A DNA stretch of 64,000 nucleotides from an uncultured Prevotellaceae bacterium (GCA_902769705.1 CACXPX010000014.1:464-64463); one strand, 5' to 3'; positions 1,577-29,089 are shown, counted from the stretch's first letter. Numbers and translations are program-made. Notes: a model not told the origin generated them from the sequence alone.

Positions 1577-3160
1577 TTAATTATATGTTCCTGCGATGTC
1601 TTCCATCACGGCCTCAATGGCTTTCGACGTATCGTCGTCGATTTTGCCGCTTCCCAGGGTCTCGATGATTTCGGGATGCGTGGTGCGCACTTTCTCGAGG
1701 AAGGCGTCCTGACACTCGCGAACCTTGTCGATGGGCACATTGCGCATGAGGCCGTGCACTCCGCAATAGAGGATGGCCACCTGCTCGCCTACGGGCATGG
1801 GGTTGTATTGAGGCTGGATGAGCAGCTGGTTGTTCTTGCGGCCTCGATCGAGTGTCATAGCTGTGACGGCGTCCATGTCGCTGGAGAACTTGGAGAATGC
1901 CTCGAGCTCACGATACTGCGCCTGGTCGATTTTCAGCGTTCCAGCCACTTTCTTCATCGACTTGATTTGTGCGGAGCCACCCACACGCGACACTGAGATA
2001 CCGACGTTGATGGCGGGTCGGAATCCTTGGTTGAAGAGGTCGCTCTCGAGGTAGATCTGTCCGTCGGTGATGGAGATGACATTCGTGGGGATGTAGGCCG
2101 ACACGTCGCCTGCCTGTGTCTCGATGATGGGCAGGGCTGTGAGCGAGCCACCTCCGCGCACATGTCCCTTCATGCACTCGGGCAGGTCGTTCATCTGTTC
2201 GGCCACTTCCTGCTGCTCGTTGATCTTGGCTGCACGCTCGAGCAGACGGGAGTGCAGATAGAACACGTCGCCAGGATAGGCTTCGCGGCCTGAAGGACGG
2301 CGCAGAATGAGCGACACCTCACGATAGGCCACAGCCTGCTTGGAAAGGTCGTCGTAGACCACGAGGGCGGCAAATCCACGGTCGCGGAAATATTCGCCGA
2401 TGGCTGCTCCTGCGAATGGTGCATAGTATTGCATGGCGGCTGGATCGGCAGCTGTTGCAGAGACGATGATGGTGTATGGCAGGGCACCATGCTCCTTCAG
2501 GTTCTGCACGAGAGCGGCAACTGTGGACGCTTTTTGGCCGATGGCCACATAGATACAATAGACAGGCTTTCCTGCCTCATAGAAACTCTTCTGGTTGATG
2601 ATGGTGTCAACGGCGATGGCAGTCTTACCCGTCTGACGGTCGCCGATAATGAGCTCACGCTGGCCGCGTCCGATAGGAATCATCGAGTCGACAGCTTTCA
2701 ATCCCGTCTGCAGGGGCTCTTTCACCGGCTGGCGATAGATCACGCCCGGGGCCTTGCGGTCGAGTGGCATCTCGAAAGCACCTGTGAGGTCGATGTCGCC
2801 CTTGCCGTCGATGGCTTGTCCGAGAGGGTTGATGACACGTCCCAGCATGTTGTCGTTCACTCGGATTGACGCAATGCGGTGGGTGCGCTTCACAACTTGC
2901 CCTTCCTTGATACCAGACGTGGAACCCAGCAGCACACAACCCACGTTGTCTTCCTCCAGGTTCATCACAATAGCCATCGTGCCGTTTTCGAACTCAAGCA
3001 ACTCGTTGGCCTCAGCATTGCGCAAACCATAGATGCGGGCCACACCGTCGCTCACCTGGAGCACAGTTCCCACCTCGTCGAACTTGGCGCTGTCGCTGAT
3101 GCCTTGCAATTGCTGGAGCAACACTGCTGACACTTCGCTTGGTTTTATTTTGTCTGACAT
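1577..3160 (-). CDS. atpA: ATP synthase F1 alpha subunit
   Basis: Walker [47 protein letters not shown]. Confidence 0.99.
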
Positions 3161-15847: not shown

Positions 15848-16780
15848 ATGAAACTCTCGATTGTCATACCCGTCTATCGTGTGGAAAGGACTTTGGACCG
15901 GTGCGTGGAAAGCGTCATCAGCCAGTCTTTCCGCGACATTCAGGTCATCCTTGTCGATGACGGCTCACCTGACGACTGCCCTCAGATGTGCGACGAGTGG
16001 GCAGAGAGAGACCCGCGCATAGAGGTCATCCACAAAAGGAATGGCGGACTCAGCGATGCACGAAATTATGGCATCTACCAGGCAACAGGCGAGTACATCA
16101 CCTTTGTCGACAGCGATGACAATTTGTCCTACGACCATACACTCGCCCAGCTGATGGACCTCCTTGACCAACATCCCGAATACGACATCCTTGAATATCC
16201 CATCATCGAACACAAAGGGCACCTTACCAAGCAACGCCATCTGGGCTTCTCTTTTCGCGAATATAAGGATATGAGGACTTATTGGTACAAAACGAAAGCC
16301 TACCAGCACACCTACGCCTGCAACAAAATCTATCGCCGGCAACTGTTCGACAAGGTTTCGTTCCCCTACGGCCGCAAGTTCGAGGATGTCTTCACGTTGC
16401 CTCGGCTGTTGGAGCATTGCCACGTGGTGGCGACCACCCCCTATGGGCTCTACATCTATCGCTACAACCCGCAGGGAATCACCGAGTGTGCCGATGGGAA
16501 AGCGTTGTCAGATCTGCTCGACGCCCACCTCTCCATCCTCTCCAACGGAGGCCGGCTGCTGCCCATAGACTACGAATACTATGCCCACATTCTGAACATT
16601 GCGCTCGACGTGTATGAAGCCACAGGCTCTGTCCCCTCGTTGCCCATGCCACGCAAGCCTCTTGTCGACACCACCACAGATGGCAAAAACATCAAAATAC
16701 GACTGCTGGGCATCATCGGACTCAAGAACCTCTGCCGGCTGAACAAAGCACTTCATTCCCTCATGATATGGAGAAAATAA
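15848..16780 (+). CDS. GT2 glycosyltransferase
   Basis: MKLSIVIPVY, LVDDGSPD, NGGLSDARN, FVDSDD, FEDV. Confidence 0.93.
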   Translation: MKLSIVIPVYRVERTLDRCVESVISQSFRDIQVILVDDGSPDDCPQMCDEWAERDPRIEVIHKRNGGLSDARNYGIYQATGEYITFVDSDDNLSYDHTLAQLMDLLDQHPEYDILEYPIIEHKGHLTKQRHLGFSFREYKDMRTYWYKTKAYQHTYACNKIYRRQLFDKVSFPYGRKFEDVFTLPRLLEHCHVVATTPYGLYIYRYNPQGITECADGKALSDLLDAHLSILSNGGRLLPIDYEYYAHILNIALDVYEATGSVPSLPMPRKPLVDTTTDGKNIKIRLLGIIGLKNLCRLNKALHSLMIWRK

Positions 16781-17721
16781 GTTTCATCATCACCGCCTAC
16801 AACATTCAGCCCTCCATGCTGAAAGCGTGCATAGAGAGCGTGCTGGCCCTGAACCTCGACAACGAGCTGCGGGAAATCTTGCTCATCGACGATGGCAGCC
16901 ACAGCAGTCCCCTGCCCCATCTCGGTTCCCTGGCCGATGAGATTGTCTACATCCGCCAGCAAAACCAAGGCATCAGCGAGGCACGAAACACAGGACTAAG
17001 GGCGGCAACAGGACAATACATACAGTTCATCGATGGCGACGACCATCTGATGCCTGCCGCATACAAGCATTGCCTGGACATCGTGGGAAAACATTCGCCC
17101 GATGCCATCGCCTTCGAACTGACCACCAACGACAACGACTCACCATCCGACATCACAGCCACAGGGCCCACCGAAGGCTGCCAATATCTGCTGAAGAACA
17201 ATGTGCATGGCTCCATTTGCACCTACCTCTTCAAGAAGTCGGCAGCAGCCAACCTCACCTTCACCCGAGGCATCACCTATGGAGAAGATGAGGAGTTCAC
17301 CCCACAGCTGATTCTGCGGGCCGACACCCTCTACACCACCGACGCCAAGGCCTACTTCTATCGCCAGCACCCCTCGTCGGCCACACACCAGAAAGATGAG
17401 GAGAACATCAGGAAACGACTCGACGACAACCTGACAGTCATCCTGCATCTCAACAAAATCTCCGACACCCTGCCCACGGCTGAACGCGAAGCCCTGAAAC
17501 GCCGTGTTGCACAACTCACCATGGACTTCATCTACAACGCCATCACCATGACGCGAAACCCCGAGAAAGTGGAGCAATACATCGACCAACTCTATGCCGA
17601 AGGACTCTTCCCGTTGCCACAACGCGACTACACCAAGAAGTACAAATACTTCCGCATGATGACACAAACCAAAACAGGCAGAAAAATCCTCTGCCACACA
17701 CTTCCACGACTGAAAGGATGA
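16768..17721 (+). CDS. GT2 glycosyltransferase
   Basis: ISFIITAYN, LIDDGS, NQGISEARN, FIDGDD, GEDEEF. Confidence 0.93.
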   Translation: MEKISFIITAYNIQPSMLKACIESVLALNLDNELREILLIDDGSHSSPLPHLGSLADEIVYIRQQNQGISEARNTGLRAATGQYIQFIDGDDHLMPAAYKHCLDIVGKHSPDAIAFELTTNDNDSPSDITATGPTEGCQYLLKNNVHGSICTYLFKKSAAANLTFTRGITYGEDEEFTPQLILRADTLYTTDAKAYFYRQHPSSATHQKDEENIRKRLDDNLTVILHLNKISDTLPTAEREALKRRVAQLTMDFIYNAITMTRNPEKVEQYIDQLYAEGLFPLPQRDYTKKYKYFRMMTQTKTGRKILCHTLPRLKG

Positions 17722-17753
17722 AAAATGAAAAATGAAAAATGAAAGATGAACCA
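17719..17753. repeat. Heptamer tandem repeat (TGAAAAA)n starting at the GT2 stop codon
   Basis: tgaaaaa x3, tgaaaga, tgaacca. Confidence 0.85.
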
Positions 17754-17827
17754 ATGGTCGCTGGCCGCAGGAAACCAACGGTCGCTGTCGCGTAGCGGGG
17801 AAAGTATAAGCAAAGATTAATTGTCAA

Positions 17828-19024
17828 ATGAAAATATTGTTATTAGGCGAATACAGCAACGTGCATTGGACGCTCGCCGAAGGGCTCCGCAAGTTGGGAC
17901 ACCAGGTCACCGTGCTCTCCAATGGCGACTTCTGGAAAGACTACCCGCGCGACATCAACCTCGTGCGCACACCCGGCAAATGGGGTGGCATCCGCTACAT
18001 GGCTCGCCTCTACAGCCTTCTGCCCCGCCTGCGAGGCTACGATGTTGTGCAACTCATCAACCCCATGTTCCTCGAGATCAAGGCTGAGCGCATCTTCCCC
18101 ATCTACCGCTACCTGCGCCGCCACAACGGCAAGATGGTGATGGGAGGATTCGGCATGGACTACTATTGGGTGTCCACCTGCTGCAACGAAAAGCCTCTGC
18201 GATATAGCGACTTCAACATCGGCGACAAACTGCGCACCGACGAGGATGCACTACGTGAACGCCGCGATTGGCTGGGCACCAAGAAGGAAGAACTCAACCG
18301 CTTCATAGCCGAAGATTGCGATGCCATCGTCACAGGACTCTACGAATACCAGGTGTGCTACCAGCCCCACTTCCCTGAGAAAACCACGTTTATTCCGTAT
18401 CCGATAAAACTAGAGGAGAAAAGCCTCTCCCCCGCCCCCTCCCCCGTAGGGAGGGGAGATTCGAGCAACGAGGATTCTCAAGCTGCCAGCAAATCTCATT
18501 CCACACTCCACATTCCACATTCCACAACTTCCCCCTCGGGGGATAAGAGGGGGGCCCTTTCCCTCTTCATCGGCATCAACCGCTCTCGCTCTGTATACAA
18601 GGGTACCGACATCATGCTGCGAGCAGCACAAGCCATCAAAGCGCAATATCCCGACCGTGTGGACCTCCAGATAGCCGAGAGTGTTCCTTTCGCCCAATAC
18701 CAGCAGATGCTCAATGGAGCCGATGCCATCCTCGACCAGCTCTACAGCTACACGCCCTCCATGAACCCCCTGATGGCCATGTCGAAGGGCATCATCTGCA
18801 TCGGAGGTGGCGAGCCTGAGAACTACGAGATTCTGGGCGAGACCGAGCTGCGTCCCATCATCAACGTGCAACCCACCTACGAGAGTGTCTACCATGAACT
18901 CGAACAACTCGTCCTTCACCCCGAACGCATCCCTGAACTCAAACGACAAAGCATCGAGTACATCCGCCGCCACCACGAATACCTGAAAGTGGCGCGGCAA
19001 TACGAAAAAGTGTATAAGAGGTAA
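17828..19024 (+). CDS. GT-B fold (GT4-like) glycosyltransferase carrying an in-frame repeat-derived insertion
   Basis: MKILLLGEYSNVH, KGTDIM, DQLYSYTPSMNPLMAM; low-complexity insert KSLSPAPSPVGRG...SPSGDKRGA. Confidence 0.9.
   Translation: MKILLLGEYSNVHWTLAEGLRKLGHQVTVLSNGDFWKDYPRDINLVRTPGKWGGIRYMARLYSLLPRLRGYDVVQLINPMFLEIKAERIFPIYRYLRRHNGKMVMGGFGMDYYWVSTCCNEKPLRYSDFNIGDKLRTDEDALRERRDWLGTKKEELNRFIAEDCDAIVTGLYEYQVCYQPHFPEKTTFIPYPIKLEEKSLSPAPSPVGRGDSSNEDSQAASKSHSTLHIPHSTTSPSGDKRGALSLFIGINRSRSVYKGTDIMLRAAQAIKAQYPDRVDLQIAESVPFAQYQQMLNGADAILDQLYSYTPSMNPLMAMSKGIICIGGGEPENYEILGETELRPIINVQPTYESVYHELEQLVLHPERIPELKRQSIEYIRRHHEYLKVARQYEKVYKR
18421..18557. repeat. Composite repeat inside the CDS: REP copy, (CATTCCA)x4, second GC hairpin
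   Basis: 18421-18458 matches 3241-3278; heptamers 18497-18524; CCCCTC/GAGGGG hairpin within 18529-18557. Confidence 0.85.
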
Positions 19025-19032
19025 GAGGGGCT

Positions 19033-20241
19033 CTACGGCCACGAGTCGCTAAGCTTCTCGAACAACTCGGGCACATACACAGGATTGACATTCCTCATCC
19101 CCACTCTTACCATAATCAGGTTTTTGTACGGATTCACATAAAGCACCTGAGCACAGATGCCCACGGCATAGTAGCCGGGAGTCTCAGACTTGGCGCCCCC
19201 ATAGTTGCTGGAGTTATACCAATTGAAGTGATAGCCTTTGTTGCTCGAGTCGTATTCCGTTGACCGTCGTATCCAGTCCTCGCTCACAATGCGTTTCCCG
19301 TTCCACATGCCACGATTCAAATACAGGCGGCCTATCTTGGCAAGGTCCTTCATCGTGAGGGTCATTCCCCCGAAGGTGTGAGCCACCCCATGCCTGCGGC
19401 TGTCGACATTAATGAGTGCCGGCGACTCCATCTGCAGAGGCTTCCACACCTTCTCGCTCAGGTAATCGGCAAAGCGCTTGTTCGAAGCCCTTTCTATCAC
19501 CACGCCCAAAATCTGCGAAGTCATACTCTCGTAGCGATACTCCTTTCCCGGCTCACAACGGAATTTCAGCCCCCGTATCTGCCTCATCACGTTATGCCCG
19601 TAGTTCAGCTTGGCAATGGCCACTAGCCTGTTGAGACTCTTCAGACTCAGGTAATACGTGTCGTCGAAATCCAGTCCGCTTTGCATGTCCAGCAAATGCC
19701 GTATGGTGAGTTTCTGCCACATGGGGTCTTTCTTTTTCAGCTCCGGCAGATATTCCGTCACAGCATCATCAATGCTCCGTATATAGCCATCGTCGACAGC
19801 TATTCCACACATCAGAGAAGTGATGGACTTGGAAACGGAGAACACGGTCGCCAAGCGGTCTGAAGAGACATCGCCCCAATATTTCTCATAGACGATGCTG
19901 TCGTTTTCGATGATCAGCACGCCCTGGTTCCTGCAGGTTTTCAACGCCTCCGCGAGGGTGATGTTCCTGCAATAATCGCCCTGAGTGTAGAAGTGCAAAG
20001 TGTCAATCCAATCAGCCTTCTGCGTGGCCACAGGAAACTGGAACGTCTCGTTGCCGTTGGCAATGGCCACATGAGGGTGGCGCTCGAAACTATAGATGCC
20101 CGGTCCGTTCTTGCCGTCAGCCATATACCCCCTCACCACGGCACACGACACCGCGACCATGCTGAAAATCCCGATGGCAAGCACCCGAATGACACTCCTC
20201 ATTCCCTCGCTCACCTTGCTCTTGTTGATAGTTCTGTCCAT
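19033..20241 (-). CDS. Serine hydrolase, beta-lactamase/class C-like family, probable lipoprotein
   Basis: FSVSKS (SxxK), LTIRHLLDMQSG, YESMT, LAKIGRLYLNRG; lipobox VAVSC. Confidence 0.88.
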   Translation of the reverse strand: MDRTINKSKVSEGMRSVIRVLAIGIFSMVAVSCAVVRGYMADGKNGPGIYSFERHPHVAIANGNETFQFPVATQKADWIDTLHFYTQGDYCRNITLAEALKTCRNQGVLIIENDSIVYEKYWGDVSSDRLATVFSVSKSITSLMCGIAVDDGYIRSIDDAVTEYLPELKKKDPMWQKLTIRHLLDMQSGLDFDDTYYLSLKSLNRLVAIAKLNYGHNVMRQIRGLKFRCEPGKEYRYESMTSQILGVVIERASNKRFADYLSEKVWKPLQMESPALINVDSRRHGVAHTFGGMTLTMKDLAKIGRLYLNRGMWNGKRIVSEDWIRRSTEYDSSNKGYHFNWYNSSNYGGAKSETPGYYAVGICAQVLYVNPYKNLIMVRVGMRNVNPVYVPELFEKLSDSWP

Positions 20242-20311
20242 GTTAGTTAGAGAAATTGAACGCACGCATCGCCCTACCCTTTCCTGTTCACGATAGCGTG
20301 TCTAATTGGAT

Positions 20312-20319
20312 GCAAAGAT
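20312..20319 (-). promoter_or_regulatory. -7 box upstream of the serine hydrolase
   Basis: TATCTTTG on the minus strand. Confidence 0.6.
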
Positions 20320-20373
20320 AATGAAAATCTCGAAAACCGCCACCTCTTTTTCAGAAAAACTACAAACTGAAAC

Positions 20374-20412
20374 AAACGGCCACCAACTCTCCCGAGTCAG
20401 TGGCCCGTTTTT
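20374..20412. terminator. Bidirectional terminator after the restriction operon
   Basis: AAACGGCCAC/GTGGCCCGTTT stem with T-rich tails on both strands. Confidence 0.75.
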
Positions 20413-20442
20413 GTTGTTTGGGAGTTTATAAGGAGGTTAGTC

Positions 20443-21342
20443 CTACTCATTATTACCCAAGAAAGAAATACGCTTCAGGGGTAGCATATTCTTGTCTTCG
20501 TCAGACATCTTGTCGTAATACACCTGCCACATCTCGATGAACTCATCGCCATCAATCAGGCGGATGAATTTGTCACCACTCGATGCTGCATGTTTGGCAT
20601 CTGCCGAATAAGTGCCACTGGTGACAAACAATGCGATATCACCAGCCTTCAGCACACCAGACAAAGCACGAACCTCCGCTGCTCCAATAGCCGTGTCTGG
20701 CTTATGTTTCACCTGAACCTTGATACGCGGAGTTTGAGCACCCAACGGGTCTAAATAAGCAATAATATCTACACCACCATCCTTGCCTTTGGGAGCAACA
20801 AAAGGTGTGTGATATTTCATAGCTCTCAGCAAAGCTGCCACCATGTCTTGAAATTCGTATGGACTTTTCGAAACAATGAAGCTCTTGATGCCTTCGCGTG
20901 CATCAGACTCTAATAGGTCAAGATTCATTGAGTTATCCTTCTCGGCTGTCTCATCGTTAGGTTCCTTTCCAGGAGTCTCCTCCTTGGGGTTCAGCAACCG
21001 CCATTCATTGTAGGCAGCGTTGGCAATGTTCATCACCTCTTCAGGGGATTTCTTCAAAGCCTTTTCTCCTTCAGGTGTAATATACCAAGTGCCTTTTTTC
21101 TTAATGATGAACCCTGCCTTCTGATAATCAATGGAATAGAACTGGAAACTATTTGTCCAACGGATATACTGCATCTTTCCAGCCTTCTCGCGTTCCCAAT
21201 CTGTGAGTTTCACGTTTTCATTTACGAAGGGGTATAGTTCTTTGGCAGGCATACTGCCACCGCGACGACTCATTTCCGTCATCACCGCATACAACGTTTT
21301 CGTTGCACAGGCTTTTGTTCTGCTGAATTGTTCCTTTGCCAT
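20443..21342 (-). CDS. mrr: Mrr-like restriction endonuclease (N-terminal wHTH plus Mrr catalytic domain)
   Basis: SPYEFQDMVAALL, DGGVDIIAY, VQVKH, VTSGTYS, IRLIDG. Confidence 0.88.
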   Translation of the reverse strand: MAKEQFSRTKACATKTLYAVMTEMSRRGGSMPAKELYPFVNENVKLTDWEREKAGKMQYIRWTNSFQFYSIDYQKAGFIIKKKGTWYITPEGEKALKKSPEEVMNIANAAYNEWRLLNPKEETPGKEPNDETAEKDNSMNLDLLESDAREGIKSFIVSKSPYEFQDMVAALLRAMKYHTPFVAPKGKDGGVDIIAYLDPLGAQTPRIKVQVKHKPDTAIGAAEVRALSGVLKAGDIALFVTSGTYSADAKHAASSGDKFIRLIDGDEFIEMWQVYYDKMSDEDKNMLPLKRISFLGNNE

Positions 21343-21355
21343 ATCTTTTTGTTCT

Positions 21356-22543
21356 TTATCTGTTTCCTTTCGCCCTATTGTGCGTCTTGCAGAGCATCTG
21401 GCAGTTATCGATGTCCGTGCTGCCGCCCTTGCTCCAAGCCGTCACATGGTCTGCATCCATTTCGGTGAGTTTCCAAATGCGAGTGCGGTTGGCGTCGTGC
21501 CCTAATGCGCAATAAGGGCAGTTCGATTCGCCTTTCTTCTCAGCAACCTCTGTTTGCTGGGCATATACGGCTTTCTTGGTGGGTTCGTCGAAGACTCTCA
21601 CATTCAGCAATCGAGGCTCCTGACAATCGCCAAGCACATATTCATAGATGCCTTTCTTGTCCTTCACGAAGAAACTCTCATACAATTCGCGAACCTTGGC
21701 AGCGACAGCCGTTGGGTCGTAGGCCTTGTTGTGATATCGTTCGTAGAGTTCGCCCCAACGCAGTCCGCACATCTCCTTCTCGGGTACAAAGTCAAAGACC
21801 GACGTTATCCAGTCGATGACGGACGTGAAATAGGCCTTCATCTCTTGGATATTATCTTCATAGCGGTGTGCAGCCATATAGTTCTCAATAGACTTGTTGT
21901 CGCCCGTGTCCTTCGAAATCCAAGCAAGGGCTGTATGCAAATAGTCCTGACGCTTCACGTTGCCGGGAATGAAGAACCGCCACTTGTTGATGTTCGGGTT
22001 GTTCGAATTCGAGAACTCCTCCTTGGCTTTCGTCACAAAGGGGCCGCTATAAACCGAGTTCAGTATCTCCTGTGGGTTGAGCGGTATGCCCACGATGTTG
22101 ATGGTGCGGAACCAGTCTTTGATTTCCCTCTCCGTTCCCTCGCAGACGTAGATGAGCAGACGGGTATTCAGGAAACGCTCCTGCTCGTCTTTGTTCAGAG
22201 CCGTGAAATACCAAGGACGCCCGTCGGCATCAATCCAAGCAAACTTCTCGGTGATGAAACGTCCCAGCGAAGTGATGCGTTGCTGACCGTCGAGCACCTC
22301 ATAACGGTCTTCACCCACCTTCGAGAAATAAATCAGACCCAACGGATAGCCGTTGCGAACGGACTGAATCACGTCCATCTCCTTTTTTCCGCCATTCTCG
22401 GCATAGAGGTAATGGCGCTGATATTCGGGCTGAATGGTCAGTCGGCCTGAAAGACCATACAGCCCTTTGCCTTCGTATTCGTTATACTGGAAACCCTTGC
22501 AGATGTCGCCTATCGTCCAGTCGGTGATAAGAGTTGGTGTCAT
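21356..22543 (-). CDS. DUF262 (GmrS-like) plus C-terminal HNH endonuclease
   Basis: QPEYQR, DGQQR, F..IN..G..L; CPYC...DADH...GG...[14 protein letters not shown]. Confidence 0.9.
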
Positions 22544-22548
22544 ATCGG

Positions 22549-23688
22549 TTATTGTTTTTTGCGGATGAGAATGCGTGCGTATGGTTTCTGAGGTATTCCG
22601 TCCTCGTCAATATAATAGAGTTGACCGTCTCTTAGGCTCTTGTTCAATTTCTTTAGTTCGCGAGGATAAGGTTTCAGACCAAGTTCTTTCCCAGAATCTC
22701 CTTCTGCAAAACCTATCAATTCAAATTGCTCAGGACAGTATTTGTCAAGAAATGTAGTTGGAACTCCCATTGCGCCATCATAATCAGATGGAATTGAATC
22801 AACATAAGGAATATCAATAGCATCGTAATTCTCATATTGGATATATCCACGCTCACGGATTTTCTTTCGTTTACTATAGCGTAAATTGTCCTTCATAGTC
22901 ATTAAGTTGAGCGACTCATGACGTCGTCCATGTTCCATATTTGTAAACCAACAAGAATTTCCTAAACGTGTATAGTCACCAACATATCCCAGCTTTGCAG
23001 CCTTGGCCTTATCTTTGGGATCAACATCCGTTCCTTTGGGAACTGCGAATACCATGTCATTCATGAAACCAGTTGCACCAAGCCACAGCCGATTATCCTT
23101 TATGCAGGGGAAAATTTCTTTATATGTAATTGCATTTAGATTGCCTATTATCAATAGCGCTTTGTTTGCATTAAGACACCATGCTACAAACTCCCTAAAT
23201 AAACTGAACGGTGGGTTCGTCACTATGATATCCGCCTCGTCTCTTAACTTGCAGACCTCACGGCTTCGGAAGTCGCCATCGCCTTCAAGGTAGTGCCACT
23301 CCAGGTCATCAATGTCGATACGACCGTTTTGGTTGGTGTCGTGTGTCAGTTCGAATATCTTTCCTTTGATGCGCGTCTTGTCGGCATCGAACAGTGGGCT
23401 CTCGGTCTCGAACAGCGAGGGCTGGTAGTTCTTATACTTCTTGCTCTCCACGGCATACGACGTACTGATGAGCCGCTTCAGTCCAAGCCGCTCGAAGTTC
23501 TGCGCGAAGAACCGAGTGAAGTTGCTCCACTCCGGATCGTCGCACGGCAGCAGCACCGTCTTGTCGCGAAACGTGTCGGGATTGTATTCCAGATAGGCGT
23601 TCACCTCTTTCTGAATATCGGCATACTGCGTATAGAACTCATCGTTCTTCGCCGCCTTCGCTGCACCAAGGTTAGTATTGTTGGCCAT
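22549..23688 (-). CDS. Adenine-specific DNA methyltransferase, EcoRI family
   Basis: [32 protein letters not shown]. Confidence 0.92.
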
Positions 23689-23729
23689 ACTTGCAATTGA
23701 TAGTTAGTAACAATTGCACTCTACTATCA

Positions 23730-23993
23730 ATCACGCCACTGAACACAAAAAAGCGTGATGCACCTTTTGCGTTCAGCTATGAGGCAGCCTCGGATGGAAA
23801 CCCCAGTCGTCTTAACAAGTATGCACCACGCCGAAGCGTGTGCATCGCTAATATATAGACGACAAGGCACTCCATACGAGCGTCTTATCACATATTATTT
23901 CTGTGCGTTGTTATTTCCAATAAGTTTCCGAGGCTTTTGGCTGAACGCGAAATAATAGCGAATGCTTTCATTAGTCCGGATTTCTCCCCGAAC
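23730..23993 (-). ncRNA. Structured 5' leader (candidate attenuator) of the methyltransferase-nuclease operon
   Basis: Nested complementary segments, UUCG tetraloop hairpin, mutually exclusive 3' pairings; see findings. Confidence 0.65.
23888..23971 (-). CDS. 27-aa upstream leader peptide MKAFAIISRSAKSLGNLLEITTHRNNM
   Basis: First ATG after the TACCTTTG box; encodes the 5' strands of the leader stems. Confidence 0.5.
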   Translation of the reverse strand: MKAFAIISRSAKSLGNLLEITTHRNNM

Positions 23994-23999
23994 TGAGGG

Positions 24000-24007
24000 C
24001 AAAGGTA
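24000..24007 (-). promoter_or_regulatory. -7 box for the leader and restriction operon
   Basis: TACCTTTG on the minus strand. Confidence 0.65.
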
Positions 24008-24102
24008 TAAAAAACTTTGGAAAGTATGCTTCTTTTGGGTGAAAAACTTCAAATAAATAATGGCTCCAAAATAAAGAAAATAAGCTAACATGCTGTTCTG
24101 AG

Positions 24103-24338
24103 GAGTTTTTTTCGAGTTTTTCAATTGTCGTCTGATGAGCCGAAACGCCCTGTCAGACGGCTTTTCGCGAGGTTCCGTCGAGTTTTTTGCATAAAAAAGC
24201 CAAAAACTTTTATATTCTTTTCCTTCTTTATTTTTTTTTGAGAAAAAACACCCAAAAACTCGGTTCGGGTCACTTAAATCGTTGTGTAACAGATATTTAC
24301 GTACATTTAGAACTTCGGCAAAAACTCGGAAAAAACTC
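24103..24338. repeat. Symmetric element with 19-bp outer inverted repeats and four CGAGTTTTT boxes
   Basis: gagtttttttcgagttttt (24103-24121) versus aaaaactcggaaaaaactc (24320-24338). Confidence 0.6.
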
Positions 24339-24361
24339 TTTGCTGGTGGATGGAGTACGAC

Positions 24362-24410
24362 AAAAAAACAAAAGGCCACCGAACTCACATTACCGAGTCA
24401 GGTGGTCTTT
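24362..24410 (-). terminator. Terminator of the AAA ATPase gene
   Basis: AAAGGCCACC/GGTGGTCTTT stem, T run on the minus strand. Confidence 0.7.
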
Positions 24411-24426
24411 ACTTAGTCTGCTTTTG

Positions 24427-24514
24427 TCATTAGCCCCTAATGGGCGTGTCATTAGCCACTAATGGGCGTGTCATTAACCCCTAATGAGGAGGTCATTAAC
24501 CCCTAATGAGGAGA
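24427..24514. repeat. 22-bp period tandem array, 4 units
   Basis: tcattagcccctaatgggcgtg / tcattagccactaatgggcgtg / tcattaacccctaatgaggagg / tcattaacccctaatgaggaga. Confidence 0.92.
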
Positions 24515-24523
24515 CCCCTCTCG

Positions 24524-25891
24524 TTACAAAAACATTGTCATTAGGGCGGGAAACAGTGTTGTTTCACCATCCTTTTTGTAATCCTTAGTATATACAAGAT
24601 AGCGGTTGCTGATGCGCTCTGAGTATTTCTTGCAGAACTCATCCAACGATTTGTGCGTTTTATAACCAGATGACTTGACTTCCAGAGGCCAAAGCTTTGC
24701 ACCACGTGAAAGCAGGAAATCGACCTCGTAATTATGGTTAGAGGTTTCTGATGGCCATGTATGGTAGAACAGTTTATTACCAGTAGCCGTAAGCATTTGC
24801 GCAACGATGTTTTCATAAACATAGCCAAGATTTGCGGAGAGCTTGTCGGAAAGCAGTTTCTGGTAGATGACATTCTCCGTAATATCCTTATCCCAGAAAG
24901 CAAGAGTTACAAAAAGTCCCGTGTCACCGACATACATCTTATATTGGTTATAATCCGTATGCATAGGCATACCTACATGAGGGTCGTTTGCATGATGGGC
25001 GAAATTGACAGTCAGACTGTCCTCCAAATCCCTTAGTAGTTCGTCCATCGTGTGCTTATCTTCACTTCGTCCAAGTACACTTGTGACCTGATAACGTGAA
25101 GCATTCTTAGACAATTCTGAAGGTATTCCGCTAAACAAACGTGAAACTTTGCCTGACGGGTCTATTTTCAGGAAATCATCATAGTAGAGTTCTATTATCT
25201 CCCTCTTCACCGAATCAACAAGACTAAGATTATTGGTGTTAATATATTCATCGACAGCCTGAGGCATCCCTCCAACAAGCATATAGAGGCGGAAATCACG
25301 CATAGCTTTACGGAAGGATTGCTGAAGAGGATGTCCTTTCTCATAGAATTCATGAAGCAAGGGAATTGTCGCAGTGTCACCCATAGCCCATCGGAACTCT
25401 TCATAATCCATAGGGTACATGGTGAGTCGCGTTTCCTCACTGGGAATGACAATACCCTTAGTGTTTTTCTTGATGGAGAGCAGCGAACCCGTCTCGATAT
25501 AATCATATCGATGGTCTTTCACTAAATATTTGATGGCTTGACGTACGGCTGGGCATTTCTGTATTTCATCGAAGATGATAACAGAGTGGCGTTCTATCAA
25601 CCTTACATTATAAATGAACTGGAGTTGGGTGAAAAAGTAGTTGCGATCTGAAATATGGTCTACAGCCGCCCAAAGTTCATCGGGGGCATCAGCGAAATCC
25701 ACGACTATGTAACTCTCATATTCATTGCGTGCAAACTCCTCAGCAATAGTAGATTTACCCACACGCCTTGCTCCTTTGATGAGTAGGGCTGTCTTACCAT
25801 CCCGCTCTTGTTTCCATTTGAGCATCGCCTCGTAGATTTTGCGCTTGAAAACTTTTTTCTCTGATTCCATTTCGTATCTAATATGCTGCAT
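24524..25891 (-). CDS. AAA+ ATPase with DUF4143 domain (start 25891 or 25870)
   Basis: GARRVGKS, FDEIQ, ETGSLL, GGMPQAV, D.GL, EVDFLL...EVKS; visibly AT-richer than flanking housekeeping genes. Confidence 0.92.
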   Translation of the reverse strand: MQHIRYEMESEKKVFKRKIYEAMLKWKQERDGKTALLIKGARRVGKSTIAEEFARNEYESYIVVDFADAPDELWAAVDHISDRNYFFTQLQFIYNVRLIERHSVIIFDEIQKCPAVRQAIKYLVKDHRYDYIETGSLLSIKKNTKGIVIPSEETRLTMYPMDYEEFRWAMGDTATIPLLHEFYEKGHPLQQSFRKAMRDFRLYMLVGGMPQAVDEYINTNNLSLVDSVKREIIELYYDDFLKIDPSGKVSRLFSGIPSELSKNASRYQVTSVLGRSEDKHTMDELLRDLEDSLTVNFAHHANDPHVGMPMHTDYNQYKMYVGDTGLFVTLAFWDKDITENVIYQKLLSDKLSANLGYVYENIVAQMLTATGNKLFYHTWPSETSNHNYEVDFLLSRGAKLWPLEVKSSGYKTHKSLDEFCKKYSERISNRYLVYTKDYKKDGETTLFPALMTMFL

Positions 25892-25899
25892 AGTGAATG

Positions 25900-25998
25900 C
25901 AAAGATAAACGTTTTTGTTAGAATCCCCAAATTTATTTCCATAAAAATGTATGGAATCCCCAAATTTTACACGAAAGAACCGTTCAAAATCCCCAAAT
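25900..25998 (-). promoter_or_regulatory. Promoter with three AATCCCCAAAT boxes at 33-bp period
   Basis: TATCTTTG 25907-25900; TTTG 25931-25928 inside box 1; boxes start at 25922, 25955, 25988. Confidence 0.75.
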
Positions 25999-26111: not shown

Positions 26112-27572
26112 TCAGGCTCCTGTGACGCTGCTGAGCCAGCCGTAGATGCAGGAGAAGACTCCGAAGGCTACGATGCCCAGGGTGCAGAGGGCGAGGGCCA
26201 GCTTGGTGGCACGGTCGCTCTGGAATGCGGGCAGAGGAGCGGTGGTCTTCTTGATGTACATCTCCTTGACGATGAGCAGATAGTAGTAGAGGCTGGGAAC
26301 GGTGTTCACCAATGCCACGAACACTACGAAGTAGGCCCAGAAGGAACCTTGCTCGGCTGCTGCCATGAAGACGAAGAACTTGGAGAACATGCCTGCGAAG
26401 GGCGGGATGCCTGCCAGAGAGAACAGGGCGAGTGTCATGAGGAATGACAGACGCGGGTTGGTCTGGTAGAATCCGGCATAGCTGTCGCGCTGGGTGGTGC
26501 CTCCGTTGTTGTGCTCAACGACTGAGATGACGCTGAAGACGGCGAGGTTGGCTGCCACATAGATGAGCGTGTAGAACATCAGGGCGGTGAGTCCCATGGC
26601 TGAGTTTCCAATCACGGCGAGCATGATGTAGCCGGCCTGTGAAATGGAGCTGAAGGCCATGAATCGCTTGAGTTCCTTCTGTCGCATGGCGAAGAGGTTA
26701 CCAATGGTGATGGTGAGCACGATGACGATGTAGAGCAATGTCTCCCAATACTCGACGATGGGGCTGAAGACCTTCATCAGGATGGTGCAGAGGGCGAAGG
26801 CTGCGGCTCCCTTGGAGATGACGCTGAGGTATCCCGTGACGGGTGTGGGCGCTCCCTGATAGGTGTCGGCTGTCCAGAAGTGGAAGGGCACGAGGGAGAG
26901 CTTGAAGCCAAGTCCTGCGAAGAAGAACACGAGTCCCACGATGAGGAACACGGGGGTGTAGTAGGCGGCGCTCACGAGGGCGCTCATCTTGGCGGCTGCA
27001 TCGTCGAAGTAGAGTGTTCCGCATGCGCCATAGACGAAGGAGATGCCATAGAGCATGATGGCCGAGGAGAAGGTGGCGGTGAGGATGTACTTGGCGCCAG
27101 CCTCGGCAGAGACTTTCTTCCACTTGTCCATTGCCACGAGGCACGCCATGGGCACTGAGGCCATTTCGAGCCCGAGGAAGAACATGAGGAAGTGGCCGGA
27201 GGACATCATGACATACATGCCGAGCAGCGTGGAGACGATGAGCATGTAGAACTCGCCCTCGTAGCGGCGGGCCACGGGAGTGTTCTCAATCCACGTCTGT
27301 GCCATGATGCAGACCACGAGCGAACCGCCCGTGAGGATGAGCTTCATGGCGTTGGCGGCTGCCGTTGAGACATAGATGCCGCCAAACACTTCAGCAGGTG
27401 CTGCCAGGGCACAGGGAATGAGCTGCAGGAGCAGCAGCGTGTGGGCGAGGCAACGCAAGATGGAGTGTTTCTTCTCGCTCTTGTTGAGCGCGAAGTCGGC
27501 AAAGAACAATATTATCAGAATAGCTACCAGCGTAGCTTCTGGAATCATCTGTAAGAATTGTGAATAGTTCAT
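26112..27572 (-). CDS. nuoN: NADH-quinone oxidoreductase subunit N
   Basis: GLEMAS, FKLSLVPFHFWTADTYQGAP, LSLAGIPPFAGMFSK-type motif. Confidence 0.97.
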   Translation of the reverse strand: MNYSQFLQMIPEATLVAILIILFFADFALNKSEKKHSILRCLAHTLLLLQLIPCALAAPAEVFGGIYVSTAAANAMKLILTGGSLVVCIMAQTWIENTPVARRYEGEFYMLIVSTLLGMYVMMSSGHFLMFFLGLEMASVPMACLVAMDKWKKVSAEAGAKYILTATFSSAIMLYGISFVYGACGTLYFDDAAAKMSALVSAAYYTPVFLIVGLVFFFAGLGFKLSLVPFHFWTADTYQGAPTPVTGYLSVISKGAAAFALCTILMKVFSPIVEYWETLLYIVIVLTITIGNLFAMRQKELKRFMAFSSISQAGYIMLAVIGNSAMGLTALMFYTLIYVAANLAVFSVISVVEHNNGGTTQRDSYAGFYQTNPRLSFLMTLALFSLAGIPPFAGMFSKFFVFMAAAEQGSFWAYFVVFVALVNTVPSLYYYLLIVKEMYIKKTTAPLPAFQSDRATKLALALCTLGIVAFGVFSCIYGWLSSVTGA

Positions 27573-27589
27573 ATCGATTCCTCCTCCTT

Positions 27590-29089
27590 TTAAATTGTGG
27601 CCATAGCCGGATTAACTACTGAAAGAATGGGCACCAGAGCATTGTCGATGATGGGCTTGAAGAAGAACGGAGTGAGTCCGAGGCCAGCCACACAGAAGAT
27701 GAGGCAGGCAACGGCTATACGCTCGTCCCAAGTGGCATCGGTGAGCAGCTCGTAGTGGGGGTCGGCAACCTTGCCCATCAGAATCTTACCGGCCACGCGC
27801 AGGATATAGACTGCTGTGACCACGATGGATGTGCAGGCAATGATGGTGCAGACACGATGGAAGGTGTCGGCATTCTGGAACGAACCCACGAAGATGGTCA
27901 TCTCAGCCGTGAAGCCCGAGAAACCGGGAAGTCCGAGGTTGGCCAAACCGGCGATGAGATAGCCTACGGCAAGGAAGGGCATAATCTTCATCAGTCCGCC
28001 CAACTTGCGCACGTCACGGGTGTGGGTGCGGCCATAAATCATACCGATGAGGGCAAAGAAGAGGGCCGTCATCAAACCGTGGGAGAGCATCTGCAGGATG
28101 GCACCCGAGCAAGAGGTCTGCGTCATCATCAGCAGGGCAAAGAGCACCAGGCCGCAGTGGCTGACTGATGAATAGGCGTTGATGTACTTCAGGTCGGTCT
28201 GCACACAAGCCGAGAGGGCTCCATAGACCACGCTGATGGTGGTGAGGATGAGGAATATCCATGCCAGCTCCTGAGCAGCCTCAGGCAACAGGTACATGGC
28301 CACACGGAAACAGCCATAGCCTCCGAGCTTCATCAGCACTCCGGCATGGAGCATTGACACGGCTGTGGGGGCTGAAGCATGACCGTCGGGAGACCATGTG
28401 TGGAACGGGAACATGGCACCAAGCACGCCGAAGCCGATGAAGATGAACGGGAAGAACACCTTCTGGATGGCAACGGGGATGTTGTGCATGGTGGCAATCT
28501 CCACCACATTCATCGTTGAGGCTCCTGAGAAGAAATAGATGCCCAGGATGCCAATGATGAGCAGGGCGGAACCTCCCATGAGCATCAGGGTGAGCTTCAT
28601 GGCAGAATACTCCTTGGCTCCACTACCCCACACGCCGATGAGCAGATACATGGGGATGAGGGCCACCTCGTAGAACATGAACATCGTGAAGAGGTCGATG
28701 GTGATGAAGAATCCGAACACACCCGTGGAAAGCAGCGTGAACCAAAGGAAATACTCCTTGGTGAGCGGCTTGAGCTGCCATGAGGCGAAGGTTCCGGTGA
28801 AGACGATGATGCTCGACAGAAGCAACATCACCACCGAGATGCCATCAACGCCCACAGCATAGGCGATGTTCAGAGGTTTGAACCAAGGTATGCTATCAGC
28901 AAGCAGCATCACATCGGTATTACCAGCTGCACGCTGCTGAACGAAATATACGGTCAGCCAAATGGACAGGGCCAGCAAGCACGATGCACCGGCCACCATC
29001 ACACCACGCACCTGATTGAGATTCTTCGAGAGCCAAAGGCCCAGAAGCATCAGGACGGGGATTACTACGAATAGACTTAATATATTCAT
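27590..29089 (-). CDS. nuoM: NADH-quinone oxidoreductase subunit M
   Basis: FYEVALIPMY, PFHTWSPDGHASAP, KLGGYG, LGLPGFSGF. Confidence 0.97.
   Translation of the reverse strand: MNILSLFVVIPVLMLLGLWLSKNLNQVRGVMVAGASCLLALSIWLTVYFVQQRAAGNTDVMLLADSIPWFKPLNIAYAVGVDGISVVMLLLSSIIVFTGTFASWQLKPLTKEYFLWFTLLSTGVFGFFITIDLFTMFMFYEVALIPMYLLIGVWGSGAKEYSAMKLTLMLMGGSALLIIGILGIYFFSGASTMNVVEIATMHNIPVAIQKVFFPFIFIGFGVLGAMFPFHTWSPDGHASAPTAVSMLHAGVLMKLGGYGCFRVAMYLLPEAAQELAWIFLILTTISVVYGALSACVQTDLKYINAYSSVSHCGLVLFALLMMTQTSCSGAILQMLSHGLMTALFFALIGMIYGRTHTRDVRKLGGLMKIMPFLAVGYLIAGLANLGLPGFSGFTAEMTIFVGSFQNADTFHRVCTIIACTSIVVTAVYILRVAGKILMGKVADPHYELLTDATWDERIAVACLIFCVAGLGLTPFFFKPIIDNALVPILSVVNPAMATI

Follow-up and report, generated by a model that had tools for sequence, protein, structure and literature searches.

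The promoter and the ~290-nucleotide (nt) leader of a putative Type II restriction-modification (RM) operon occupy positions 24007-23689, minus strand, of the window, the 64,000-nt stretch of DNA from an uncultured Prevotellaceae bacterium (GCA_902769705.1, CACXPX010000014.1:464-64463) analysed here. The operon begins with a DNA methyltransferase (MTase) gene, ATG at 23688, followed by the gene of a putative restriction endonuclease (REase). The leader is likely, with a probability of about 70%, a cis-regulatory conformational RNA switch of this operon belonging to a Bacteroidales family, and such a switch is probably new. Two mutually exclusive folds of the RNA appear to be under selection, because a domain of seven helices, P1-P7, and a helix T that competes with it both covary among homologous leaders.

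A first-pass annotation of the window had proposed a structured leader built on two long-range helices, and the strings that it listed are all in place on the minus strand. The box TACCTTTG lies at 24007-24000; GCGTTCAGC (23948-23940) pairs with GCTGAACGC (23777-23769) as the outer long-range helix, P1, and AGCCTCGGA (23935-23927) with TCCGAGGCT (23794-23786) as the inner long-range helix, P2; GTCGTCT (23863-23857) is complementary to AGACGAC (23812-23806), and the hairpin ATGCA-CACGC-TTCG-GCGTG-G-TGCAT occupies 23845-23821. An alternative pairing, helix B, joins CTGAACGCAAAA (23776-23765) to TTTTGTGTTCAG (23750-23739), and ATCACGC (23759-23753) is complementary to GCGTGAT (23736-23730). The 312 nt before the MTase ATG are predicted to fold at -115.7 kcal/mol versus -83.2 +/- 5.4 for dinucleotide shuffles (z = -6.06). 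The single sequence is not decisive, because perfect 9-nt inverted repeats are not rare in the AT-rich spacer, where six were found; it is the comparative evidence that shows the leader structure to be real.

The core 21-mer of the leader (23955-23935) matches more than 119 species-representative genomes among the matches listed, nearly all of them Prevotellaceae, Muribaculaceae, Bacteroidaceae or other Bacteroidales, and metagenome contigs from unrelated rumen and gut samples stack on 23918-23991. A search for the whole leader, with an nhmmer profile built from the alignment, yields 104 full-length copies in the collected loci, the one in the window at 23968-23695 (E = 4e-79); the alignment analysed for covariation, A1, holds 58 non-redundant leaders. 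The first-pass annotation could name no Rfam family for the leader, and none fits: none of the 4227 Rfam families matched, with zero hits at the gathering threshold of Rfam 15 in the window and 18 other loci and noise in permissive scans of three leaders. A sub-threshold resemblance to L13_leader at the same place in the window (23908-23959, 21.8 bits) and in a second locus (L022:4838-4889, 17.9 bits; threshold 44) probably arose by chance in a local hairpin. A tRNA/tmRNA search found none, a DNA similarity search gave no match among annotated plasmids and none in IMG/VR viral contigs, and a literature search returned no description of the element, the word "riboswitch" being absent from the reviews of RM regulation that were searched. 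The leader is one member of a widespread and, it appears, undescribed family of structured RNAs of gut and rumen Bacteroidales.

The family shares its promoter as well as its RNA. In 102 of 114 copies (89%) a Bacteroidota-type -7 box, TAnnTTTG, lies no more than 110 nt ahead of the core, versus 4% of random windows from the same loci, and it always stands directly 5' of the first hairpin. At the other end, the leader stops 0-8 nt from the start codon in essentially all copies. The open reading frame (ORF) of an EcoRI-family MTase begins ~255-285 nt past the 21-mer in 84 of the 99 copies with enough flank. An MTase of this family follows the leader in 75 loci, and the next gene is of one DUF262-HNH family in 58; the genes that flank the MTase-REase pair are unrelated among loci. 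The complete leader is also found before N6_N4-family MTases (L054, L056, L029), an HSDR_N protein (L047, L083) and an unknown 822-residue protein (L019), and its junction with the start codon is kept even where the downstream gene family differs. RM genes of at least four families thus follow at a fixed distance, a consistency of downstream gene class that is also expected of riboswitches. Because of this fixed position before varied RM genes with unrelated flanks, promoter and leader together form a modular unit for RM operons.

The promoter and the P1-P7 domain comprise the following features, in 5' to 3' order of the RNA.

24000-24007, minus strand: -7 promoter box TACCTTTG, of the Bacteroidota type and conserved in the family, the transcription start probably lying a few nt downstream.
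23974-23993, minus strand: 5' terminal hairpin H0, GUUCGG(GGAGAAAU)CCGGAC, always present, its sequence type varying by subfamily.
23949-23965, minus strand: invariant 5' single strand GCAUUCGCUAUUAUUUC, candidate partner in a pseudoknot (PK) and in helix E.
23940-23948, minus strand: P1 5' strand GCGUUCAGC, invariant in A1.
23927-23935, minus strand: P2 5' strand AGCCUCGGA, with double compensatory changes at three positions (16, 16 and 10 of 58 sequences).
23913-23919, minus strand: P3 5' strand UGGAAAU, covarying with 23801-23795, A-U being replaced by G-C in 15 sequences.
23889-23905, minus strand: P4 hairpin CACA(GAAAUAAUA)UGUG, whose loop (23901-23893) is the 3' partner in PK.
23864-23886, minus strand: P5 hairpin AAGACGC...GUGCCUU (RNAalifold columns 194-203/212-219), with double changes in 6-14 sequences.
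23806-23863, minus strand: P6, GUCGUCU (23863-23857) with AGACGAC (23812-23806), enclosing P7; 7 of 7 pairs covary.
Within P6, minus strand: P7, AUGCACACGC (23845-23836) with GCGUGGUGCAU (23831-23821), with four covarying pairs.
23769-23777, minus strand: P1 3' strand GCUGAACGC, overlapping the 5' strand of helix B (23776-23765).

Helices P1-P7 were assessed on A1 by RNAalifold, by explicit pair counting and by a blind mutual-information scan, and all three agree. The cells of P1-P7 pair in 92.9% of cases, versus 29-39% when the partners are slid, and 210 of them are double changes, versus 74 +/- 9 in shuffles. Such a covarying structured domain in the 5' untranslated region (UTR) is characteristic of riboswitches. 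Frequent G-U pairs are seen only on the sense strand, which is therefore taken to be the strand that folds. The covariation that the first-pass annotation had proposed to look for among homologs is thus present, across P1-P7 and T alike.

P1 called for separate treatment, since its 5' strand is fixed by the search pattern in A1 and could show no variation there. Metagenomes were therefore scanned solely for copies with a changed base, GCGUVCAGC, and three contigs from two independent lineages were found, both lineages carrying GCGUCCAGC together with the compensating GCUGGACGC, a 3' variant whose base rate in A1 is 5/58. P1 can thus be said to have passed a prediction test made on sequence, and with the three covarying pairs of P2 the comparison bears out both long-range helices of the first-pass annotation.

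A pseudoknot that joins the P4 loop to the strand preceding P1 is also suggested. UAUUAUUUC (23957-23949), immediately 5' of P1, is complementary to the P4 loop GAAAUAAUA; PK is 97.8% pairable, and the 39 one-sided changes, all A-to-G, preserve pairing: 38 fall in the loop and face a U, and the remaining one, on the 5' side, faces a loop U. Overlapping the same strand, helix E pairs GCUAUUA (23959-23953) with UGAUAGU of hairpin D, described below, and is 99.8% pairable and invariant; the 5' side of the PK/E region is partly fixed by the search pattern. Helix O, between the 5' GCAUUCGCUA and the 5' flank of P7, is a possibility only: it is 93.8% pairable and essentially invariant, with one position broken in 17 sequences.

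Members of the family vary in several ways. H0 occurs in at least two unrelated types, one with a GGGGAGAAAUCC loop and the other with GGAUUUGGC...GCCAUUUCC followed by GACAUCGUUGGUAAA, and the spacing between promoter and core differs between the types (40-75 nt). A Bacteroidales-type leader with its promoter is found in metagenome-assembled genomes (MAGs) of Clostridium, Dysosmobacter, Lachnospiraceae, Faecalibacterium or Bifidobacteriaceae (L010, L016, L020, L044, L069, L074), which likely reflects a mis-binned island or mobile DNA rather than true host range. L055 has a natural internal deletion of ~190 nt, from the P4 loop to the 3' arm of hairpin D, that joins the remainder directly to the MTase start; it lies ~60-110 nt after the 21-mer match of that locus (2515-2535, minus strand), leaves the M and R genes intact, and is possibly a leaderless variant or an assembly artefact. 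A 54-nt hairpin insertion in L016 and truncations in L042 and L099 have their breakpoints at or close to the P2/P3 bulge (profile positions ~56-74), which may be a rearrangement hotspot or a structurally tolerant site. In L043 the gene of a DDE transposase (insertion sequence) follows the leader.

The blind mutual-information scan also exposes two helices outside the P1-P7 model, T and X. These and the other helices of the 3' part of the leader are made from the following segments.

23780-23805, minus strand: helix X, UGGGG (23805-23801) with CCUCA (23784-23780), bracketing the 3' strands of P3 (23801-23795) and P2 (23794-23786).
23747-23763, minus strand: segment r, GUGCAUCACGC (23763-23753), then the sole U-tract (23752-23747); r forms helix T with the P7 3' strand or hairpin C with 23736-23730.
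23730-23750, minus strand: helix B 3' strand UUUUGUGUUCAG (23750-23739) and hairpin C 3' strand GCGUGAU (23736-23730).
23695-23732, minus strand: hairpin D, GAUUGAUAGU with ACUAUCAAUU, abutting the start codon and sharing its basal GAU with hairpin C.

Helix T, formed by the P7 3' strand (23831-23821) with 23763-23753, is 96% paired over 12 base pairs in A1 and has 22 double-change cells versus 6.9 +/- 2.0 in shuffles, none of 500 of which reach 22. Because it shares one strand with each, T is incompatible with P7 and with hairpin C. The arrangement has the overlap of sensor and expression platform seen in riboswitches, T taking the 3' strand of P7 and B that of P1, and the mutually exclusive hairpins (P7 versus T, C versus T, with C and D sharing GAU) by which leader-peptide attenuators control termination or the ribosome-binding site. 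T also has the G+C-rich stem followed by a U-tract of an intrinsic terminator, ending at 23753 with six U at 23752-23747, and this is kept in the family. Helix X is 96.5% paired with 11 double-change cells versus 1.9 +/- 1.2 in shuffles, and since a single nucleotide separates P2 from its 3' arm, it either belongs to the alternative fold or requires a sharp kink at P2/P3.

The remaining helices vary less. Helix B is 85% pairable, its covariation on A1 is not above shuffles, and a few apparent compensations are seen by eye (L008/L060, L033, L065); hairpin C shows mainly wobble variation, its lone double-change pair (350/395) being unpaired in 14 sequences; and the hairpin D arms GAUUGAUAGU/ACUAUCAAUC, 0-8 nt from the AUG, are nearly invariant in the 58 members. 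Nearest-neighbour predictions made without pseudoknots put the P1+C fold of the window at -115.8 and the B fold at -119.3 kcal/mol, with a family median difference of 1.6 kcal/mol, and the X+T fold at -101.4 kcal/mol, less stable in the window and near parity across the family. By predictions of the same kind, the unpaired probability of positions -15 to -1 is 0.43 with C enforced versus 0.24 under B or T (p ~5e-8, n = 40), and 0.34 versus 0.07 in the window copy. The mutual exclusivity that the first-pass annotation had claimed for its two folds holds up, and the energies of its P1+hairpin state and of helix B lie close together, both in the window and across the family. Its helix B is not the best supported competitor; that is T, which it had not seen.

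In the window copy, inverted octamers containing CAATTG, TGCAATTG (23718-23711) and CAATTGCA (23699-23692), lie in and after the hairpin D loop, before the ATG. This pair was considered as a methylation-sensitive operator and rejected, as it is present in the window copy only and CAATTG is not depleted (12 sites in the window).

The leader is transcribed. Rumen metatranscriptome assemblies contain its core, and in gut samples unbroken RNA contigs lead from the leader into the MTase ORF of a Segatella copri copy.

Relatives of the RM pair that are without the leader also bear on its function. The same M-R pair is carried by plasmids of Enterococcus, Moraxella and Rhodococcus (MTase 51-61%, REase 55-59% identity), and the MTase by a Bifidobacterium plasmid (54.5% identity); a profile search found the leader in none of these. 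On a Phocaeicola massiliensis plasmid (OY725995.1, L124) the MTase is 61% identical and the slot before it holds no RNA leader; in its place, after a TATACCTTTG box, is a C-protein-like 67-residue ORF of the HTH_3 helix-turn-helix (HTH) family (L124:1287-1490, 5.6e-11). This is a natural exchange between a protein and an RNA regulator, and it gives circumstantial yet telling evidence that the leader regulates its operon. In the leader-bearing loci no small HTH controller gene was found, there being no conserved third gene or other extra ORF and no Pfam match for the ORFs of the spacer, which accords with the first-pass suggestion of control without a C protein.

A mechanism can be proposed in which the sensor domain P1-P7, probably pseudoknotted, would block T when folded, so that transcription would read through. 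Segment r would then form hairpin C, which would shorten hairpin D and open the initiation region, with the operon ON. Were the sensor domain not locked, T and X with the six U would form a terminator-like or sequestering structure and the operon would be OFF; alternatively, helix B would displace P1 after read-through and restore a full-length hairpin D, again with the operon OFF.

Several points weigh against such a switch. The compact short-loop hairpin of an intrinsic terminator was not found, since T encloses ~57 nt including helix X, and a terminator scan made no call at T and its U-tract. P7 is a local hairpin that is expected to form first, at the expense of T. Instead of belonging to the alternative fold, X might make a tertiary contact within the folded state. 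Helices B, C, D and E are almost invariant, so that covariation neither supports nor refutes them, and the ON/OFF polarity rests on the predicted fold energies and start accessibility. Since the sample was drawn with an exact 21-mer, that segment looks more conserved than it is; the RNA evidence consists of assembled contigs that have neither direction nor ends; and the leader is not strictly essential, as L055 has lost most of it with M and R intact.

If the leader is a conformational switch, its trigger may well be a small-molecule ligand, which would make it a true riboswitch, although the chances of this fall short of even; SAM or SAH (S-adenosylmethionine or S-adenosylhomocysteine), as a cue linked to methylation capacity, is an attractive candidate. 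A trans-acting protein or RNA ranks next as trigger and is somewhat unlikely, and translation of a leader peptide is not the trigger. One specific MTase is unlikely to regulate itself through a leader that serves unrelated RM genes, and a general signal, either a metabolite such as SAM/SAH or a host factor, is more plausible. The most specific form of the riboswitch reading is put forward tentatively and is itself rather doubtful: the leader would be the first riboswitch class dedicated to RM operons, a ~230-nt pseudoknotted aptamer that senses a metabolite (e.g. SAM/SAH or an infection- or damage-related nucleotide) and acts by antitermination and unmasking of the start site.

Less probable, and on the whole unlikely, is that the same leader responds to a host RNA-binding protein, an autogenous RM protein or a small RNA, or that it is a triggerless co-transcriptional kinetic timer or thermometer that damps expression in a new host. 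The strict sequence conservation of the loops and of both hairpin D arms is typical of protein-binding sites, and the C-protein gene in the leader's slot in L124 and the need of RM systems for delayed or limited expression on establishment also speak for this reading. However, the presence of the leader before at least four unrelated families of first gene is contrary to autoregulation by one MTase, the cassette has no conserved gene for a candidate protein, and the size of the leader and the number of its conserved junction nucleotides resemble those of ligand-binding RNAs.

The RNA could instead be a stand-alone noncoding RNA that acts in trans with the RM proteins, as an RNA antitoxin, nuclease inhibitor or scaffold, and is merely co-transcribed with them, but this is very improbable. 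The depth of the core relative to the 5' coding part of the MTase gene is 20-30 fold in RNA contigs versus 2-7 fold in DNA runs, and the excess could come from a stable, abundant fragment of the leader; the U-tract after T could mark its 3' end. Against this, contig depth is a poor measure of expression that is confounded by sequence conservation, the last hairpin lies 0-8 nt from the start codon even where other gene families follow, and the RNA contigs are continuous over the boundary of leader and ORF.

The first-pass annotation had favoured an attenuator of the erm or trp type, in which a 27-codon upstream ORF (uORF) is translated and ribosome transit or stalling over the 5' strands of P1 and P2 would flip the fold, and this can scarcely be maintained. 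In the window copy the frame opened by the ATG at 23971 (stop 23890-23888) does cover both strands, and alternative folds do exist; the 27 codons are the in-frame tail of a mechanical 166-residue ORF (23888-24388) that has no Pfam match. Among 84 copies, however, only 3 have an ATG at the homologous position and 9 any in-frame upstream ATG, the first in-frame stop scatters over 0-82 codons, and indels of 1-4 nt within the supposed ORF are not multiples of three. All codon positions are conserved, and the nucleotides covary as RNA helices. The uORF of the window is thus incidental, lying outside what constitutes the leader element.

The least probable reading, with a negligible chance of being right, is a DNA-level element, that is a folded single strand or recombination site that moves RM cassettes or an invertible or single-stranded DNA (ssDNA) promoter: the cassette does occur in unrelated contexts, the same leader stands before different RM genes, and several truncations and one insertion break at the P2/P3 bulge, but the neighbourhood holds no conserved recombinase gene, a search that was not exhaustive showed no matching site at a cassette 3' end, four metagenomes have no strand-switch joints, and the promoter box, conserved in duplex form, stands outside the structure, before a transcribed region that makes heavy use of G-U wobble. 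An invertible promoter flanked by the P1 inverted repeat was rejected on the position of the promoter outside the repeats and on the lack of such joints, and the ssDNA "leading-region" promoter of a conjugative element on the unrelated chromosomal and defence genes of the flanks and the conserved duplex promoter.

The operon and its neighbours in the window are as follows.

24524-25963, minus strand: AAA_14/DUF4143 ATPase gene (PADLOC PDC-S01), upstream neighbour of the RM operon, separated from the MTase gene by an 835-bp spacer.
22549-23688, minus strand: EcoRI-family N6-adenine DNA MTase, 379 residues, gene 1 of the operon (PF13651, 9.7e-123; PADLOC MTase_II, 6e-87).
21356-22543, minus strand: DUF262/GmrSD_N plus HNH protein (Pfam), 395 residues, putative Type II REase (PADLOC REase_II, 5.3e-81).
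20443-21342, minus strand: Mrr-like nuclease (PADLOC PDC-S02 / type IV), after the DUF262+HNH gene.
Fourth gene after the spacer, minus strand: beta-lactamase-family gene.

Adjacent MTase and endonuclease genes, kept as a pair in 58 loci and also among plasmids from several phyla, point to a Type II RM system, and the first-pass reading of the region as a structured 5' leader of an RM operon is borne out by the scores of the REBASE-derived PADLOC models (MTase_II 6e-87, REase_II 5e-81). The contig is a scaffold from a bovine-rumen metagenome. The pair lies with the ATPase and Mrr-like nuclease genes in a defence island (19033-25963) of lower G+C content, 40-50% over the block from ~19 to 26 kb versus ~55% in the flanks; beyond it are NADH dehydrogenase (nuo-like) genes (26112-29089) and glycosyltransferase genes (16768-19024). 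GATC is strongly depleted in the window (1-64000), with 37 sites observed versus 270 expected (ratio 0.14), and has a ratio of 0.30 pooled over all cassette-bearing loci (L002-L120 and the window); CTAG is also rare (0.07). The depletion of GATC hints at long exposure to GATC-specific restriction, possibly by the present RM family. Upstream of the promoter, 24010-24523 is an AT-rich spacer of ~500 bp. Its long A/T runs, its 19-nt inverted repeat of 95% identity (24103-24121 / 24320-24338) and its terminator-like site at 24270-24250 (minus strand) are not conserved in other loci.

Known safeguards of RM systems are C proteins, methylase autoregulation, promoter methylation and antisense RNAs. 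RM systems are toxic if the nuclease outruns the methylase, and delayed or limited expression is needed on establishment (reviewed in PMC3874152). To the known safeguards, a widespread, highly conserved leader RNA that has two folds under selection would add control of immunity genes by an RNA switch. It is found in the Bacteroidales, the bacterial order that dominates the microbiomes of human gut and rumen. Should it bind a metabolite, defence expression would be linked to physiology, and the family would be a new orphan riboswitch class with more than 100 natural variants. RM systems are also the main barrier to the transformation of Prevotella and Segatella, and the leader could be a handle with which to tune or silence them.

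Among known systems, C proteins (C.PvuII, C.Esp1396I, C.Kpn2I; PMC3874152, PMC2691842, PMC6237814) use the same slot immediately upstream of the RM genes, where the Phocaeicola homologue has its HTH gene, and presumably serve the same purpose of gating a potentially lethal M/R pair. The leader may thus fill their functional place and, if the RM-riboswitch reading is true, would be their RNA counterpart in Bacteroidales, modular and swappable among unrelated RM gene sets. Unlike C proteins, which bind DNA at C-boxes, it is an RNA structure in cis, and because it precedes M and then R in one operon it cannot alone delay R relative to M. Control of RM systems by antisense RNA or promoter methylation (EcoRI, Eco29kI, CfrBI; PMC3874152) is likewise RNA-level or cis-encoded and dispenses with a C protein, but the structure of the leader is on the sense 5' UTR, and no antisense promoter or recognition-site logic is conserved.

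Leader-peptide attenuators of the ermC/ermB type (PMC5118997) likewise have hairpins that exclude one another, with one of them covering the translation start of an MTase gene; the leader differs in having no conserved ORF, in being about three times longer and in its complex covarying domain. The raiA, HEARO, ROOL, GOLLD and OLE RNAs resemble it in size and complexity, in being widespread in one lineage, in their discovery by conservation and in having a biochemical function that is unknown, whereas the leader is strictly cis, abuts the start codon and has an explicit covarying alternative fold. With riboswitches (SAM, lysine and cobalamin classes) it shares a long 5' UTR, a multi-helix covarying domain with conserved junction nucleotides, sensor helices (the closing helix P1 and the internal helix P7) that each overlap an alternative helix, a U-tract after that helix and a start-proximal hairpin. 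It differs from them in having no Rfam match or known ligand, in controlling an RM operon rather than a metabolic or transport gene, and in the long range of its competing helix T, with the ~57 nt that this encloses. The leader would consequently be a known kind of cis-regulatory RNA switch whose application to RM operons is probably new.

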